From the NCBI GenBank assembly GCA_048939765.1, contig JBHLPF010000002.1:32001-96000 (forward strand): 64,000 nt of DNA. The letters are read 5' to 3'. Source of the stretch: Promethearchaeota archaeon (GTDB lineage Archaea; Asgardarchaeota; Thorarchaeia; Thorarchaeales; Thorarchaeaceae). The notes beneath the pieces are model-generated. The model did no database searches. It was not told where the DNA came from and saw only the letters and a list, made by a program, of their open reading frames with translations. Made by a program: the position numbers and the translations under genes. This document shows positions 44,098-51,009 of this stretch, one piece after another. Position 1 is the stretch's first letter, and each line of letters begins with the position of its first letter.

Positions 44098-45108
44098 TCA
44101 CTCATCTTGAATCTTGATGAGGAAGATCTTGTTCCCTATTGCCTGTACAATTTCATTTCTTGAATCCCCAGTAACATCACCAAAAGCTACTTGCGACTCA
44201 GCAGATTTTGAGGCGGTCTTTAGAGCAGCCTCCTCAACAAGCTCAATCCCATTGAAACCTAGCAAGAGAATTGTGGAGTCCAGCAAGCTCAGGAGAATCT
44301 GTCCCGCAGCGGTGTCTTTAAGTATTCTACCCATTCTCACTGCTGTCACCGGAGCCGGGGCTTTAATTTCAAGAACTTTTTCCAGAGTCTGTTGTTCCAC
44401 TCTTAGGAGTGTGATTGTACGCTTGTCTGACACACAGACAATCTCGTCATATCTTCCGCCTGCAATATTACCAGTGGCAATATGATAGACCTCCTTTCCC
44501 ACCTTCATCCTCCATACTTCATGAAGCCTATCATCCGCATATTGATACACGAAGATGTTGCCAGTCTCATCCCCGAAAACAAATCTGCTGTAGGGAACAT
44601 TCTCTATTGATAGTCTTCGCATAGAAAGAACAGGATTATCGACTACCTTGTGGGCCAGCTTGTCCAGAACCACGTCAAACCATCCGTAGCATCTAAGGGC
44701 TTGGTCAGTTGTAGATACTATGACTTCTGCGCTCTTGTCACTAAGCACATTTGCTACTACCAGCGAGGTAGGAATGGCTCCTACAGGGATGGAGCTCTTC
44801 ACTTGGAGCTTGTTGTCCATGAACACAAGCAGCCGGAGCTGGTTGTCAAGCCCTGCTACAACAAAGTCAGGGGTTCCATTTCCCAGAACATCTCCAACAT
44901 CCAATGCAGCTACTGGTGGGAGGTCGCTTGTGTTTGCTATCTCCTCAAGCCTTGGCCTCTTACCTTTTGTCAACTCAAAGACCCGCAGATCCCCGTTCAT
45001 AGTGGATACCACAACATTCGCTCTTCCACTGCCCGTGAGATCTACAACTTCGAGTGATGTGACTCCTTCTTTGAAGGAGTGCTCGGTTAGTAAGCTAAGC
45101 TTGGTCAT
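44098..45108 (-). CDS. FG-GAP-like beta-propeller protein (BBS2/ITFG-like)
   Basis: About 7 repeats of V-x-x-L-x-x-G-D/N-x-x-G-x-G-x-x-E/D-I/F-V-V. ATG at 45108 follows GAGGT. Confidence 0.8.
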   Translation of the reverse strand: MTKLSLLTEHSFKEGVTSLEVVDLTGSGRANVVVSTMNGDLRVFELTKGKRPRLEEIANTSDLPPVAALDVGDVLGNGTPDFVVAGLDNQLRLLVFMDNKLQVKSSIPVGAIPTSLVVANVLSDKSAEVIVSTTDQALRCYGWFDVVLDKLAHKVVDNPVLSMRRLSIENVPYSRFVFGDETGNIFVYQYADDRLHEVWRMKVGKEVYHIATGNIAGGRYDEIVCVSDKRTITLLRVEQQTLEKVLEIKAPAPVTAVRMGRILKDTAAGQILLSLLDSTILLLGFNGIELVEEAALKTASKSAESQVAFGDVTGDSRNEIVQAIGNKIFLIKIQDE

Positions 45109-45262
45109 CTGGCACTGACCTCGTGAGAAGAGGCGCTGTGAAGCAAAAACTCCGTTTCCCTGATTTAAGAGTTGCTCCAACAAGCTTCGAATCTTTTCAG
45201 CCGGATCGCTCAATCCAACTGATGCGTTTAAGATGACCTTTGCGGGATATGAAGATGAATAT

Positions 45263-45814
45263 ATGATGGCTGAGAAAACGCGAAAACCACTCCTTACTGA
45301 GGAATACTGGACTTCTACAGAATATGAAGTCCAATCTGAGATCCAATCGTTCATAGATGAATTTGGTGCTTTTACACCCGAGTGGTTTGTAGACATCAAG
45401 TTTCATCTGCTGCGTGAATCAGGACTGACAAAGGAGAGTAGAAATGAATTATGCAGACTCTCAATTCACGCAAGTCTTTGTCCTAAGTGCGATTTTCTCT
45501 ATGTTGCCAAAAGGTGTCTTCTTTGGAGCAGACTGTTTCGGATAAACCCAAGGATTATCGAACGTGCACCACCTTGCATTCAGGAAGCATTCAAGAACAA
45601 CCGGATAAAGATAGTCGCAGATTTTCTAGTCGTTGCTAACCTCATCGACCCTCCTTTCTATAAGGTGCGATCAGCCCCGTGGTGCAAGACCCTGCGAGGG
45701 TGGGGTTATTGCACTCCTGATGAGTATTGTGAGGCAATGGCGCGCGAGAATACACTGGAGTATAGTGCCGCGCGTGAGAGGGTTAAGAGATCCAGGGACT
45801 TCTCCCCCGAGTGA
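45263..45814 (+). CDS. Small Cys-rich protein with a primase large-subunit C-terminal (4Fe-4S)-like motif set
   Basis: APPCI...APWCKTLRGWGYCTPDEYC...NTLEY. Confidence 0.7.
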   Translation: MMAEKTRKPLLTEEYWTSTEYEVQSEIQSFIDEFGAFTPEWFVDIKFHLLRESGLTKESRNELCRLSIHASLCPKCDFLYVAKRCLLWSRLFRINPRIIERAPPCIQEAFKNNRIKIVADFLVVANLIDPPFYKVRSAPWCKTLRGWGYCTPDEYCEAMARENTLEYSAARERVKRSRDFSPE

Positions 45815-45923: not shown

Positions 45924-47411
45924 ATGGCTGAATTGATTCGACTGACAGGTTTTCGTGAGCACACCATTTTGGAAGCCAAGTCCAAGAAAGGTGCTGCTTG
46001 GGATGAAATCCAAGGTAAGATAGAACGACGTAAACGGCTTTGGTCTGTAGAAGAAAAACACACTCGGCAGAAAGCAATCCAGGATCCGGTGCATGGTGCT
46101 ATCCTTTTTGCACCCTGGGAGTTGGATATCTTGTCAAGCATTGAGATGCTACGGTTGCGTTTCGTGAAGCAACTCGGTCCGGCTCATCTGGTGTATCCCG
46201 GGGCAACGCATACTCGTTTCCTTCACTGCATTGGAACTAATTTCTTAGCGCAGAAATGCATACGAGTCGTCAACTATTGCGATGACTTGGATGACGCATG
46301 TTTTCACCCACTTTCCGACCTATTGGATGACTACCAGCAGAGAGTATTCCGTGCGGCGGCGCTTCTTCATGATGTTGGCCATCCTCCAACATCACACACT
46401 ATTGAGTATGCATTGGAGAGTTGGGCTGGAATTGATCATTTGGATTTGGGTGAGTATCTTATCAAGCATAGTAGTCTCTCAGATATATTGAAGGATCATG
46501 GTATCGAACCAAGAATTGTTGTCGATGTATTCAGAAGAAAAGCAAAAGATCCTGTTTGGATGCTGCTGTCAGATTTTCTTGACCATCCTTTGGATATTGA
46601 CAAGACAGACTATCTGATTCGAGATGCTCATTTCAGTGGAGTCCAGCTTGGCATATTTCCCGCTGAGCGTGTTATGTTGACCAACCGAGTTGTCAGAAAT
46701 CGAGATGGCAACTATGAAAGAGCGTTCATGCTAAAAGCCCTCCATTCTCTGGAGTCGCTAATTATGAGTAGGAATTGGATGTTCAGCGACCTCTATCTTC
46801 ATCATGCTGTGAAGCTGGCAGAAGCAATAACATCTAAGGCCACCTACTTCCGGCTTCAAGAGGAAGACCTCTCTAGAACTGAATGCTTTGGACTCTTCAC
46901 GCGAATGACTGATGCTGACCTCTATCTGTGGTTCAAGAATTCTGGGATTGAATTTGTGAGGGACTATGCACGGAGAATCAGACACAGGAGGATGTTCAAA
47001 GTGGTCCTAGCAAGGTCCCTCTCATCATTTGAAGAAGCTTCGAGAGATGCATTACTTGCAACTCTGACAGATATTGAGAAACTAATAGATATTGAATCGG
47101 AGGTTGCTGGAGATATCGGAAAAGTCATTGTTGATGTTGTGAATCCTAAGCTGGGCGAAGATATCCTCGGCAAGATTCCTCTTTTGGTAGGAGGAGAAGG
47201 TAGCAGCCTTGATACAGTGACTCTTGACTCCATCGAAGAGGGCCAACCCCTAATGCAGATCCTCAATAAACAGAAGCATACAGCGCCGGCAGTTCGTGTC
47301 TACTCCGACCCCCAAGACGCAGCCGGTATTCGTAAGAGATTCTTTCAGATGTTCTCTGCAATTCCAGGTGCAAAGGATTTGCGCAATGAATATGACATGA
47401 CAGAAGCCTAG
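45924..47411 (+). CDS. HD-domain phosphohydrolase (dNTP triphosphohydrolase/SAMHD1-like)
   Basis: IQDPVHG, RLRFVKQLG..HLVYPGATHTRF.H, LLHDVGH...SH, DIDKTDYLIRDA, YLHH. Confidence 0.92.
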   Translation: MAELIRLTGFREHTILEAKSKKGAAWDEIQGKIERRKRLWSVEEKHTRQKAIQDPVHGAILFAPWELDILSSIEMLRLRFVKQLGPAHLVYPGATHTRFLHCIGTNFLAQKCIRVVNYCDDLDDACFHPLSDLLDDYQQRVFRAAALLHDVGHPPTSHTIEYALESWAGIDHLDLGEYLIKHSSLSDILKDHGIEPRIVVDVFRRKAKDPVWMLLSDFLDHPLDIDKTDYLIRDAHFSGVQLGIFPAERVMLTNRVVRNRDGNYERAFMLKALHSLESLIMSRNWMFSDLYLHHAVKLAEAITSKATYFRLQEEDLSRTECFGLFTRMTDADLYLWFKNSGIEFVRDYARRIRHRRMFKVVLARSLSSFEEASRDALLATLTDIEKLIDIESEVAGDIGKVIVDVVNPKLGEDILGKIPLLVGGEGSSLDTVTLDSIEEGQPLMQILNKQKHTAPAVRVYSDPQDAAGIRKRFFQMFSAIPGAKDLRNEYDMTEA

Positions 47412-47424
47412 AGCAATTTGCCTA

Positions 47425-48108
47425 TCATCCCATGATAGCAGGTACCAACGCTTTGACCATTTTGAACCCATGTTCAATGTAGACAATGCCATAGATTGCT
47501 TCCACAAGGGTTCCCTTATCGTGGTCCATCTCAGTCTTACTAGGACTATCTGGGTCAAAATGGATACGTTGTTCATAGAGGCCCCATGAGTCACAGACTT
47601 TCGCCAGATGCTCATTGCTCACAACGTCAGCCCGCCGCTGAGTCAATGTACCTACATCTACAGCTCTAGGAGTCCAAATATGATGCAACACCGCCATTGA
47701 AATTGCCGCATCACCCACAAGTGCTAATGATTGAGCCATCTCACTAAGGGACAGAAGTACCGCGTAGTCTTCATTCTCAAGTGGACACCTTTTGTCATTG
47801 ACAAGATGAACCTCCATTTCACTGAACAGGTTCTTGGTACTTGGTTGGAACATAGCAACCTGCAGAAGTTCCGGCTCTACTATTGAAACGCCTAATGCCT
47901 TCTCAATTCTAGGTCTAAGCCTAGTCCGAATCATGTGCAGGGATTCAATGATTTGGGAGAGCTGTCGACCCCATTTCCTGGTCTTACGTAGCATTCGTGT
48001 GCTGTTGGAAGGTATTGTCGTTTCGACATCTTTGACAGTCTTTGCTATTACCTTTAGGGTCCTTTCAAGCCCGATCGGCTCCCATGAAAGATCACGGCCG
48101 TCTGTCAT
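47425..48108 (-). CDS. RNase III-domain protein without dsRBD (Mini-III-like)
   Basis: LALVGDAAI, GTLT..R..VVSNEHLA, GTLVEAIYG.VY. Confidence 0.85.
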   Translation of the reverse strand: MTDGRDLSWEPIGLERTLKVIAKTVKDVETTIPSNSTRMLRKTRKWGRQLSQIIESLHMIRTRLRPRIEKALGVSIVEPELLQVAMFQPSTKNLFSEMEVHLVNDKRCPLENEDYAVLLSLSEMAQSLALVGDAAISMAVLHHIWTPRAVDVGTLTQRRADVVSNEHLAKVCDSWGLYEQRIHFDPDSPSKTEMDHDKGTLVEAIYGIVYIEHGFKMVKALVPAIMG

Positions 48109-48115
48109 TAATGCT

Positions 48116-48913
48116 TCAACCCCTTGGCAACACTCTGGTTATGATATTGTCTCCATCCTTGTGCCTCACAAATATAGCACTCAGTGAGTAATGCATAGCC
48201 AATAGTGAGAGTGCAAGCACAATCAGAGGAGGTCCTGTTGAGAGATCAATAACAAGGTCATATTGTGTGATGTTGTCTGTTATTATGTTCTCAATCTCCC
48301 GCTGTGTGAGCATGACATCACCTGGAATATTCGTGTCATAGTTGCCTGCTGAGTCGACAGGCAAATCATGCCACTGTATCTCCCATTTTGGTTCAGCCTT
48401 CTCAGGCAGGTATCGTGCCAGGTCTCTTGATGAGCCTCTAGCAAAAGTCCTGTCTTCAACAATGACATGAAGAACTCTGACATCGAAATCTTTCTGGTCA
48501 TTTAGCCATGTGATGAACGGTCTCTGATCTTCTGGACGTGACATCGAGGTTATGAGAGCAACCGGTCGTGTTATTCCTAGTACTCTTCTCACTGGTTGGA
48601 TAGCCCATGGCACTAAACCAAAGAGTCGAATTCGTGAACTCTTCCTGCTAGTGATTATCTGGAGGTTCTCAAGATGTTTCGTATTATGATACAGATGTGG
48701 ATCGGTGACATTAATCGCTTGTATCTGCTTCTTGGTGAGCTTGCGCTTCTCATCTCTTGCCCTATCCATCTCTTGAGTCTGCTTGAAGCGTTTGATTGCC
48801 TCTCGCAGTTCTATCCCTGTCTTTGGGCCCCCTTCCAGAAGGTCCAGGATTATTCTCCTGGCGTCTATCTGAATCTCCCGACTGATGACCGTGTCTGCTG
48901 TTTCCCAGAACAT
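48116..48913 (-). CDS. Transcription regulator: N-terminal winged helix plus C-terminal CARF-like Rossmann domain (start 48913 or 48928)
   Basis: RRIILDLLEGGPKTG.EL...LYHN..HLE...II (PadR/ArsR-like). VALITS and LVIDLSTGPP.IVLALSLLA...AIFV match CARF motif I/II topology. Confidence 0.7.
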   Translation of the reverse strand: MFWETADTVISREIQIDARRIILDLLEGGPKTGIELREAIKRFKQTQEMDRARDEKRKLTKKQIQAINVTDPHLYHNTKHLENLQIITSRKSSRIRLFGLVPWAIQPVRRVLGITRPVALITSMSRPEDQRPFITWLNDQKDFDVRVLHVIVEDRTFARGSSRDLARYLPEKAEPKWEIQWHDLPVDSAGNYDTNIPGDVMLTQREIENIITDNITQYDLVIDLSTGPPLIVLALSLLAMHYSLSAIFVRHKDGDNIITRVLPRG

Positions 48914-49140
48914 CGTTTCGCGCCACATTAACTCAAAAACATATATCATATATATATTCCGTCTATGTAATGGTGTTTTATACACTGATAATTAATACAA
49001 AACTATGCTTAATGATGTATATATGGCCATTTGAGAGGCATTTTAAAGCTAGTAAAAGCGTCAGACATATAAGACCTATGTATATCTCGTATCAATCGAA
49101 TATACCTTAGACTTCTATTTGAATTAAAGAGACCAAGACA

Positions 49141-49215
49141 GAATAGCCTTAAATATGGTCGGAAGACAACTGTACATCAGCCTAGAGTTCCATGAACTCT
49201 GAGTTAGAATCTAGG
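49141..49215 (+). promoter_or_regulatory. Actin promoter (BRE/TATA) and downstream inverted repeat
   Basis: GAATAGCCTTAAATA (49141-49155), then AGAGTTC-CAT-GAACTCT (49184-49200) and an alternative CCTAGA/TCTAGG pairing. Confidence 0.55.
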
Positions 49216-49257
49216 TTCTGAGATCTACTCATTAACCGAAAAAGAGGACCGAAAAAA

Positions 49258-50397
49258 ATGGCTGAAGACGAGTTTCTTGGCGCGAAGCCCATTGTCATTG
49301 ACAACGGCACTGGCCTTAGCAAGAACGGATACGCCGGCGAAGATCAGCCACGGAGTGTTTGGCCCACACTGATTGGATATCCAAGATATGAATCAATCAT
49401 GACCGATGTTGACCACTATACCAGAGACTACTACATCGGTGAGGAAGCCATCAACCTGCGTGGTGTTCTGCGACTGGTCTATCCTATCACACATGGTGTG
49501 ATTGATGACTGGGACGCTATTGAGAAGATATGGAGCTACACGTTCTATAATGACCTCAAGGTAGACCCGAGTGAGAACCCAGTCCTACTGACTGAAGCAC
49601 CATTCAACCCACGTGAGAACCGTGAGAGAATGGCGTCAGTGATGTTCGACAACTTTGGTGTTCCAGCAGTGTACGTTGCCACACAGGCAGTGCTTTCGCT
49701 ATACGCGTCCGGAAGAACGACGGGGTTAGTTATTGACTCTGGAGATGGTGTGACGCACATTGTCCCAATCTACGAGGGCTTTGCTATCACACACGCCATC
49801 AAGAGGATCGACCTCGCAGGCCGTGACATCACCGAGTATCTGCGTAGACTGCTTAGACAGAGGGGTTACTCCTTTGTAAGCGGTGCAGAGAAAGAGATTG
49901 TCAGAGATGTCAAGGAGAAGCTATGTTATGTAGCCCTTGATCCTGAGAGAGAACGAACCGTTGCCGACAAGGCAGGTGTTGACAAACCATACATGCTACC
50001 GGATGGTGAGGTAATCACTGTAGGTGCAGAAAGGTTCCAGGCACCAGAGTTGTTCTTCAACCCAAGCGCGATCGGTCTTGACACCCAGCCTCTAGACGAC
50101 CACATTGTTGAGTCAATCAAGGCATGTGACGTCGACCTGCGACGTGACCTGTATGCCAATGTTGTGTTGTCCGGCGGTTCGACCATGTTTCCAGGACTCA
50201 AGGAGAGACTCCACAAGGAGATCACCGAGCTAGTCCCAGAGAACATCGAGGTCAGAATCATTGCTCCACCCGAGAGACAGTACTCTGTCTGGATTGGTGG
50301 AAGCATCCTCGCCTCGCTGAAGACCTTCCAGAAGATGTGGGTTTCCAGAAAGGAGTTCGAGGAAGCAGGACCTGAAGTCATTCACAGGTGTATCTAG
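49258..50397 (+). CDS. Asgard actin (Lokiactin-type)
   Basis: [98 protein letters not shown]. Confidence 0.98.
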
Positions 50398-50541: not shown

Positions 50542-51009
50542 GTGACATATACTAAGAAAGAATTGAGGAACCACCTTAAGGATTTAATAAAAGGAAAAGC
50601 TGACTTGGCGAACTTCATATTTGAATACCAATCTGGACATACTGCATATTATTCGCGACTCAGAATCACTGTGACCTCTGATAAGATCGTACATTGGAAG
50701 ATACCGAAAGGAACACCAATCGATATCAAGCAAGAAACTAAGGCCGCAAAAAAGAGAGAGATTGCGTTTTCTGATGATATGCTGGCCGCATTCATACAGG
50801 AGTTGGTAAAGCAGAAGATATGGGACTTGGAGAACTGTTCAGAAAGAGCGCTCCCTAATGCTGCAGTGCTCACATTCTCGATTAGGGACGGAGATAATCT
50901 AGTGTTTGAGCAAAAGGTCTGGGAGAGTTGCAGATTTGACGACAAGACGACAAAGGAACTGATAAGAACTCTCGCTTCAAACATTCCTCTAGATTGGCCC
51001 CCTCCATGA
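50542..51009 (+). CDS. Hypothetical protein
   Basis: 155-aa ORF with GTG start after GAGGT; flanked by the two hairpin copies. Confidence 0.7.
   Translation: MTYTKKELRNHLKDLIKGKADLANFIFEYQSGHTAYYSRLRITVTSDKIVHWKIPKGTPIDIKQETKAAKKREIAFSDDMLAAFIQELVKQKIWDLENCSERALPNAAVLTFSIRDGDNLVFEQKVWESCRFDDKTTKELIRTLASNIPLDWPPP

Follow-up and report, generated by a model that had tools for sequence, protein, structure and literature searches.

In a 64,000-nt stretch of DNA from a Promethearchaeota archaeon (contig JBHLPF010000002.1; the window, below, means this whole stretch), part of a 3.37-Mb genome that is 88.5% complete, a gene for a predicted transcription factor lies head to head with an Asgard actin gene and is followed by a gene for an RNase III-domain protein. 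The predicted factor, here called the regulator, combines a winged helix-turn-helix (wHTH) with a CARF domain. On balance our results favor the view that it is a dedicated and probably ligand-modulated transcription factor of the actin promoter. The regulator has stayed beside actin across many Asgard lineages, and where the two genes have parted a palindrome has stayed with actin. The features on which the argument turns are the following.

47425-48108, minus strand: RNase III-domain protein of 227 residues that lacks a double-stranded RNA-binding domain (dsRBD), identified by Pfam, structural model, fold match and conserved adjacency.
48116-48913, minus strand: wHTH-CARF regulator of 265 residues, CARF_m5 family, identified from its open reading frame (ORF), an AlphaFold2 model, Foldseek and VIA comparisons, PADLOC, and alignments A1 and A2.
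48119-48571, minus strand: CARF domain of the regulator, residues 115-265.
48572-48913, minus strand: winged helix of the regulator, residues 1-114.
48914-49257, no strand: AT-rich divergent control region of 344 nt, delimited by composition and by alignment of orthologous spacers from Thor genomes.
49258-50397, plus strand: Asgard actin of 379 residues (PF00022), the proposed target.

A first-pass annotation of this DNA had placed the regulator and RNase III genes 7 nt apart on the minus strand and had described an AT-rich region of about 340 nt toward the divergent actin. Both ORFs were confirmed, and the spacer to actin measures 344 nt with a GC content of 0.32-0.40, versus 0.45-0.52 in its flanks. 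The regulator stop codon occupies 48116-48118 and the RNase III ATG ends at 48108, which leaves the 7-nt spacer AGCATTA, preceded by a Shine-Dalgarno-like GGGGT run; the two genes are probably co-transcribed. The ATG at 48913 was taken as the regulator start, rather than the upstream GTG at 48985, because homologues begin with MFW. The actin is full-length, with a Pfam match to PF00022 of 1.1e-132 over residues 10-377.

The fold of the regulator was compared with solved structures by two methods. Foldseek was run with the AlphaFold2 model (predicted local distance difference test, pLDDT, 83; predicted template modeling score 0.79), and the 17 top-ranked matches were all CARF proteins (Cam1, Card1, ring nucleases, Csm6 and Cdn1), with E-values down to 1.3e-5; Can2 and Csa3 ranked lower in the list. 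In an all-against-all comparison with VIA, residues 115-265 matched VC1899 (1xmx) with a Z score of 15.0, Cdn1 with 14.5, Can2 with 13.8, Card1 with 13.1 and Csa3 with 12.8, at root mean square deviations (rmsd) of 2.4-2.9, and residues 1-114 resembled ArsR/SmtB-type winged helices with Z of about 9-10. Similarly, the PADLOC profile CARF_m5--CARF matched the regulator at 4.2e-21 over residues 40-258 (profile positions 18-193 of 195). All 20 proteins of the broader alignment A2 match the same profile, the strongest at 3.3e-81, and some of these relatives also match the CARF4, CARF1, Csx1 and Csa3 profiles. No usable match to the regulator was found in Pfam or NCBIfam, and a PDB sequence search gave none below an E-value of 0.5. 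By fold and by profile, then, the C-terminal domain is a true CARF domain. The first-pass annotation had read the protein as a winged helix followed by a CARF-like domain, in an order opposite to that of Csa3, and had proposed a fold comparison with CARF and Csa3 structures; the C-terminal domain does superpose on solved CARF domains, and the order, wHTH (1-114) then CARF (115-265), holds.

We use codes for Asgard families, where f1 is the Thor family and both f1 and f2 belong to the Thor order. A profile search of 1.8 billion representatives recovered a wider family of proteins of 212-260 residues that are 23-30% identical to the regulator and whose source labels include Thor-, Hod-, Frey-, Jord- and Lokiarchaeota. 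A regulator match was present in 129 of 301 sampled genomes of the phylum and in 72 of 76 Thor-family genomes, and strong matches fell into 13 family codes (f1, f2, f3, f6, f7, f8, f12, f13, f15, f19, f21, f28 and f30). The orthologue adjoins actin in 11 of these 13. At the level of single loci, tblastn showed actin as the immediate neighbor of the regulator in 54 cases among the 57 fetched loci with enough flank. The two genes are divergent in f1, f2, f3, f6, f8, f12, f13, f15, f19 and f21, and tandem in f30, where the regulator lies upstream of actin; the three exceptional loci belong to f7 and f28 only. Downstream of the regulator lies an RNase III gene (f1), a BBS-like beta-propeller (f2), a ComB phosphatase (f19, f7 and f28) or an unknown 661-residue gene, and the gene beyond actin varies even between Thor genera. 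Furthermore, the divergence of the regulator follows that of actin (regulator/actin identities of 97/100, 69/99, 51/99, 40/94, 29/89, 27/78 and 24/66%), and the actin orthologues beside the regulator in other loci are 65-100% identical.

In a maximum-likelihood tree of 48 proteins, a branch supported at 98/91 splits the actin-type proteins from paralogues linked to Cas10. The Thor f1 proteins form a clade (100/99) that is sister to f2 (97/94), the unlinked f7 proteins are sister of the actin-linked f19 proteins (100/100), and f28 pairs with f30. Since f7 is nested among actin-linked proteins and f28 is paired with f30, the loss of linkage is secondary and occurred at least twice. The actin-linked regulators are thus one orthologous group, and the regulator is a vertically inherited core gene in the Thor family. 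The arrangement with actin is ancient, older than the split of most of the Asgard families that carry it. Synteny among Thorarchaeia had been suggested earlier as a check on the pairing, and the linkage extends well beyond that class.

The spacers of the non-Thor families provide our best argument for the target. In these families one strongly conserved block lies 30-40 nt upstream of the actin TATA and forms a palindrome around GATATC or TATA: TAGATGATATCGTCTA in f15, TAGATGATATCATTTGTAGA in f21, GGATGATATCGATGATAA in f19 and TATAGTCGATATCGCTTATA in f3, with inverted repeats of 11 nt in f12 and 14 nt in f2. A 22-nt pattern, TTATCATCKATATMGATGATAA, allowed up to 4 substitutions, gave 11 matches in the 363 kb of all fetched loci, where local shuffles predict 0.2. 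Each of the 11 precedes an actin ATG by 93-301 nt; they come from f3, f15, f19, f21, f7 and f28. In f7 and f28, where the genes are separated, the palindrome is found at the relocated actin and is absent upstream of the regulator. Because the palindrome stays with actin there, we take actin, and not the regulator's own operon, to be the probable conserved target. Additionally, identity between Thor and non-Thor members is 33% in the wHTH but 18.5% in the CARF domain, and this stronger conservation of the wHTH fits a conserved DNA target.

The control region of the window itself contains the following elements.

48941-48958, minus strand: ATATAT run that resembles a TATA box, 28-45 nt ahead of the regulator ATG, with an ATATATA core that is invariant in the Thor spacer alignment; probably the regulator promoter.
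49064-49086, no strand: conserved AT-rich element with an imperfect dyad, GACATATAAGACCTATGTATATC, a candidate operator 62 nt upstream of the actin TATA.
49148-49155, plus strand: putative actin TATA box CTTAAATA, preceded by a purine-rich AAGG/ATAG that resembles a B recognition element (BRE), as judged by the archaeal promoter consensus.
49184-49200, plus strand: palindrome AGAGTTC-CAT-GAACTCT (AGAGTTCCATGAACTCT), about 30 nt downstream of the TATA and near the expected transcription start.
49244-49252, plus strand: block GAGGACCGA ahead of the actin ATG, which contains a Shine-Dalgarno sequence and hardly varies among Thor loci.

Every Thor locus has an element related to GACATATAAGACCTATGTATATC, which precedes the TATA by 40-85 nt, and GCTTAAATA, at the actin TATA, is invariant in 19 of 20. 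Only the CAGAGTT half of the palindrome at 49184-49200 is well conserved across Thor; it is followed by GAATCTAGGTTC at 49207-49218. Both GACATATAAGACCTATGTATATC and AGAGTTCCATGAACTCT are unique in their own genome, the next best match to GACATATAAGACCTATGTATATC having 4 mismatches, which fits a local, dedicated regulator.

The regulator is also independent of CRISPR in its distribution. The first-pass annotation had noted that no cas gene lies in the window, and this extends to the whole 88.5%-complete genome, in which we found no match to Cas10 (Cmr2/Csm1 profiles), Cas1, SMODS/CD-NTase or DAC and no CRISPR-like repeat array. Cas10 occurs in about 9 of 80 Thor-family genomes and in 0 of 16 from the same genus, set against the 72 of 76 with the regulator. 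It was found in 0 of 19 genomes of f12, although 12 of the 19 carry the regulator, and in 0 of 3 genomes each of f13 and f21, both families that carry it. Since Cas10 is missing from most carriers, the signal, if there is one, is not type III cyclic oligoadenylate in most of them. The nucleotide-second-messenger circuit that the first-pass annotation had put forward as one possibility gains no support from the searches for synthases in this genome, nor from the Thor clade, which no longer has the conserved basic residue that contacts the ligand. CARF_m5 paralogues do lie within a few kb of Cas10 elsewhere (G006:C4, G076:C49, G028:C379, G171:C70, and G038:C1 at 2.69 Mb; loci L075-L079) and are about 196-214 residues long as delimited. 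Several genomes with a Cas10-linked paralogue also carry an actin-type copy. The family seems to have duplicated long ago into a group linked to CRISPR and another of actin type, whose f7 copy now lies apart from actin.

Thus we propose a model in which the regulator would act as a one-component CARF_m5 factor, presumably a homodimer, whose conserved N-terminal winged helices would contact DNA. Within the divergent spacer that both genes share, the dimer would sit on the AT-rich, dyad-like site that shortly precedes the actin BRE/TATA, and the bound factor would control actin transcription and, through this spacer, probably that of its own operon as well. The CARF domain would modulate binding on a small ligand, which in this organism would be something other than a cyclic oligoadenylate made by Cas10. 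In the Thor order the ligand pocket has been remodeled, with loss of the motif-II K/R (Pro) and gain of a conserved insertion of about 40 residues, and in the Thor family the gene for the dsRBD-less RNase III has joined the regulator operon. Activation is favored over repression on a single ground, the position of the site upstream of the TATA box, an argument by analogy to archaeal activators. A broader version of the model is possible and, in our judgment, doubtful: the regulator would be a master switch for the Asgard actin gene, ancient in origin and gated by a ligand, with a CRISPR-type sensor recruited before most Asgard classes diverged to couple a small-molecule signal to expression of the cytoskeleton. 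In Thorarchaeia the switch would have been rewired: its pocket would be new, and an RNase III expressed alongside it would bring in post-transcriptional control.

Several observations weigh against the assignment of the regulator to the actin promoter. Large actin-bearing groups exist in which strong regulator matches were not found (f9, 7 of 68, weak and C-terminal only; f5, 1 of 28; f22, 1 of 21; f27, 0 of 11). In regulator-free groups other genes face actin, and the regulator is therefore not generally required for actin expression. The gene in this position encodes a PAN-like AAA ATPase in f9 (L061, G030) and an unassigned protein of more than 345 residues in f5 (L063, G026), and a palindrome of the kind described above was not seen at either locus. 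Moreover, divergent pairs can persist by shared promoter architecture without cross-regulation. The pattern TTATCATCKATATMGATGATAA was derived by eye from f19 and f7, so that only the matches in f3, f15, f21 and f28 are independent, and the Thor spacer holds only a loosely related AT-rich element, with no TTATCATCKATATMGATGATAA match at the threshold. Searches of five whole genomes with the 16-mer TAGATGATATCRTCTA, at up to 3 mismatches, gave counts equal to the reversed-pattern control, and no regulon could be defined from them; the f15 genome G029 is the only one of the five in which the actin-promoter site is the sole match at up to 2 mismatches. In the f8 genome G007 the best genome-wide match to the 16-mer palindrome, TAGATGATATTATCTA (1 mismatch), lies away from the actin locus at G007:C67:72218-72233. 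Finally, the Thor clade lacks the conserved basic residue of the CARF pocket, and for this reason the CARF domain here may sense nothing any more.

The regulator might instead control only its own operon, which in Thor comprises the regulator and RNase III, and the adjacency to actin would then reflect an old bidirectional promoter that is hard to break. Local regulators commonly autoregulate, the conserved ATATATA core sits at the regulator's own promoter, and the wider block (beta-propeller, CDP-alcohol transferase and NTP transferase) is partly syntenic across lineages. We consider this explanation unlikely, since the f7 and f28 palindrome lies upstream of actin and not of the regulator, and since the outer neighbors change while the actin-regulator pair stays. 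Far less probable still is the CRISPR-independent defense or stress module, inserted beside actin, that had been suggested earlier, in which the CARF domain would sense a cyclic oligonucleotide alarm and switch on RNase III, with actin as a bystander or a co-regulated gene. CARF domains are mostly defense sensors (PMC4012209), same-family paralogues adjoin Cas10 as described above, and in Thor a nuclease and the regulator share one operon. A regulator present in 72 of 76 genomes and an RNase III in 73 of 76, single-copy, vertically inherited and, in the tree, a single clade (100/99) would be an unusual distribution for defense genes, and the regulator is separate from the Cas10-linked paralogues. 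Neither the Cas proteins nor the synthases listed above were found in the genome, and because Cas10 was not found here and is rare in the family, a defense or type III signaling module is unlikely. The loss of the motif-II basic residue, a GC content that is the same as in the flanks and the absence of RNase III from the pair in all ten other actin-linked families also argue against it.

A different question is whether the CARF domain of the Thor order still binds a ligand. The signatures of CARF domains are a polar S/T that ends strand 1 and, after strand 4, the motif [DN]x[ST]xxx[RK] with its conserved basic residue (PMC4012209). Strand 118-123 of the regulator ends in T122-S123, and strand 4 is followed by D223-L-S-T-G-P-P229, which confirms that, as the first-pass annotation had remarked, Pro stands where CARF domains have K/R. 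Pro occupies this position in 7 of 7 Thor-type rows of A2, and R/K in 11 of the 13 other rows. Members of the wider family from the profile search show the canonical D-[VL]-[ST]-x-G-x-[RK]. Among proteins read from loci, those of f3, f7, f8, f13, f28 and f30 have R/K as well, and so do the paralogues linked to Cas10, as DCTSATK or DLTGGTK. Within the actin-linked group Pro has replaced the basic residue in f1 and Tyr/Ile in f2, and a separate loss in f6 left Glu. This pattern, in which Pro or an aromatic or aliphatic residue replaces K/R in the Thor order while the paralogues and the other actin-linked members apart from f6 keep it, would suit a ligand-blind CARF domain that serves as a dimerization scaffold only. 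The regulator would then be a constitutive DNA-binding factor or a partner of RNase III, a reading that overlaps with our own, and it would agree with a genome in which no known cyclic-nucleotide synthase was found. Such blindness nevertheless seems to us quite improbable. In alignment A1, which holds 16 close relatives all labeled Thorarchaeota or similar, residues T122-S123, P127, E128, R131, S225, G227 and P229 are conserved in the loops at both canonical pocket positions, and the Thor-specific insertion of about 40 residues is conserved at G160, W181, G190 and G198. This strong conservation of loops and insertion suggests a maintained binding surface and not decay, and it makes a changed ligand somewhat more likely than none.

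The RNase III protein matches PF00636 at 2.2e-12 (48.1 bits, cut-off 27) over residues 126-214, contains no dsRBD and ends at the nuclease domain; against the NCBIfam RNaseIII equivalog it scores 32 bits, with a cut-off of 166. Its model (pLDDT 92) has an N-terminal helical hairpin at about residues 12-72 followed by a canonical nuclease fold, with Z scores of 14.6 for the Campylobacter jejuni enzyme, 14.0 for those of Escherichia coli and Thermotoga maritima, 13 for Dicer and 11.9 for Drosha. Residues D133 and E203 are invariant and correspond to E. coli D45 and E117; at the positions of E41 and D114 the protein has invariant Ala129 and Thr200, and it thus departs from the bacterial pattern of four carboxylates (E41, D45, D114 and E117) with a C-terminal dsRBD. 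Mutagenesis of E. coli RNase III identified the pair retained here as the essential one, which makes nuclease activity plausible from the sequence. The fold ranking lends no support to an assignment to Mini-III: Z to 4oun is 7.8, versus 14.6 for canonical domains, and Mini-III was not among the PDB sequence matches at E-values up to 0.01. The best PDB sequence match was the first RNase III domain of human Drosha (2.8e-12), with T. maritima RNase III at 3.6e-5. The Drosha match takes in the flanking "LLQ.AM..PS" helix. This likeness of the Thor protein to Drosha may bear on the origin of the eukaryotic RNase III enzymes.

Full-length homologues of RNase III are present in 73 of 76 Thor-family genomes and, by coordinates, lie immediately downstream of the regulator in about 68 of the 68 genomes that list both. 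Outside the family they are sporadic, with 31-36% identity (f9, 6 of 68; also f14, f22, f24 and f5), and their contexts are unrelated (thiolase/MFS, DUF2400, AAA+/Schlafen and Cdc6). In all ten other actin-linked families RNase III is not beside the regulator. The first-pass annotation had treated RNase III as part of the circuit that links to actin, and this did not survive the comparison as a conserved feature: RNase III is best regarded as a passenger or extra output of the regulator operon that is specific to Thor and does not belong to the ancestral circuit. We also considered the actin 5' leader as a long double-stranded RNA substrate of RNase III and found no support (-16.7 kcal/mol, z -1.27 versus shuffles); the leader has only an 8-bp hairpin, which is not maintained across Thor.

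Other genes surround this group in the window. An HD-domain hydrolase with an HD_assoc_2 region (45924-47411, plus strand) converges on the RNase III gene; it is dGTPase/SAMHD1-like, with weak matches to NCBIfam dGTPase models. It is present in most Thor loci examined, with no HD match in L052 and L053. A mobile module of RNase III and this HD hydrolase was rejected, as the non-Thor RNase III homologues lack an HD gene and the HD gene is missing from those same two loci. A cytoplasmic beta-propeller (44098-45399, minus strand) matches Pfam BBS7, BBS2 (BBSome) and FG-GAP repeats (4.4e-11, 7.3e-9). It is kept in the same block in Thor, and two loci, L048 of f2 and L008 of an f2-like metagenome, have it as the first gene downstream of the regulator. 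Two further ORFs on the plus strand, 45233-45814 (193 residues) and 50542-51009 (155 residues), have no Pfam match. The position of the latter, after actin, is kept only in the close relatives L001 and L002; in other Thor genera another gene takes its place, such as that of a DUF7347 wHTH protein in L003.

We know of no account of how transcription of the eukaryote-like cytoskeleton of Asgard archaea is controlled; past work has been about actin-binding proteins, profilin and gelsolin among them. A single small, soluble, predicted DNA-binding protein beside actin in many Asgard lineages is a concrete handle on this control. The candidate operator is open to footprinting and the CARF pocket to ligand screening, and the Thor pocket can be set against that of orthologues that keep the canonical K/R. 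If our assignment holds, the known use of CARF domains would widen from antiviral signaling to the control of a core cellular gene, for which RtcR offers a precedent in RNA repair. The Thor RNase III is of interest as an archaeal enzyme without a dsRBD whose nearest solved relative in sequence is the first nuclease domain of Drosha.

By profile, the regulator belongs with CARF_m5 (PADLOC-DB PDLC01987), which includes paralogues of similar size linked to Asgard type III CRISPR systems; the name is styled after the CARF classification of Makarova et al. 2020. The Cas10-linked and actin-linked members are separate groups (98/91), and the latter occur mostly in Cas10-free genomes. Csa3 (PDB 2wte, 6wxq) is similar to the regulator in having one CARF domain, one winged helix and no enzymatic effector, and the two CARF domains match with a Z of 12.8 and an rmsd of 2.9 over 130 residues. 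Csa3, from Sulfolobales CRISPR loci, is described as a cA4-binding (cyclic tetra-adenylate) transcription factor (PMC8844856, PMC8699464). In contrast to Csa3, our regulator has the wHTH first, no cas neighbors, a presumed cytoskeletal target and Pro for K/R. The Csa3 profile gave no match to it, and weak matches to 5 of 20 relatives.

RtcR is a bacterial CARF-AAA+-HTH activator of the RNA-repair operon rtcBA, with a sigma-54 AAA+ module and a C-terminal HTH. It is a precedent for the regulator, with a CARF domain put to the transcriptional control of a housekeeping or stress operon away from CRISPR, a functional analogy by description only. The CARF domain of RtcR is divergent (PMC4012209). 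For the second gene of the operon, the nuclease fold is that of bacterial class-1 RNase III, from which the Thor protein differs by its missing dsRBD, Ala129 and Thr200, the N-terminal hairpin and an insertion of about 35 residues. Mini-III likewise has no dsRBD, and the fold match to it reaches only a Z of 7.8. In searchable papers we found no link between actin and CARF proteins in Asgard archaea, nor between CARF_m5 and actin. The CARF_m5 family is already catalogued, and Csa3 and RtcR are known CARF transcription factors; what is new relative to those papers is chiefly that the protein has stayed paired with actin and, besides this, its reversed domain order and its housekeeping setting.

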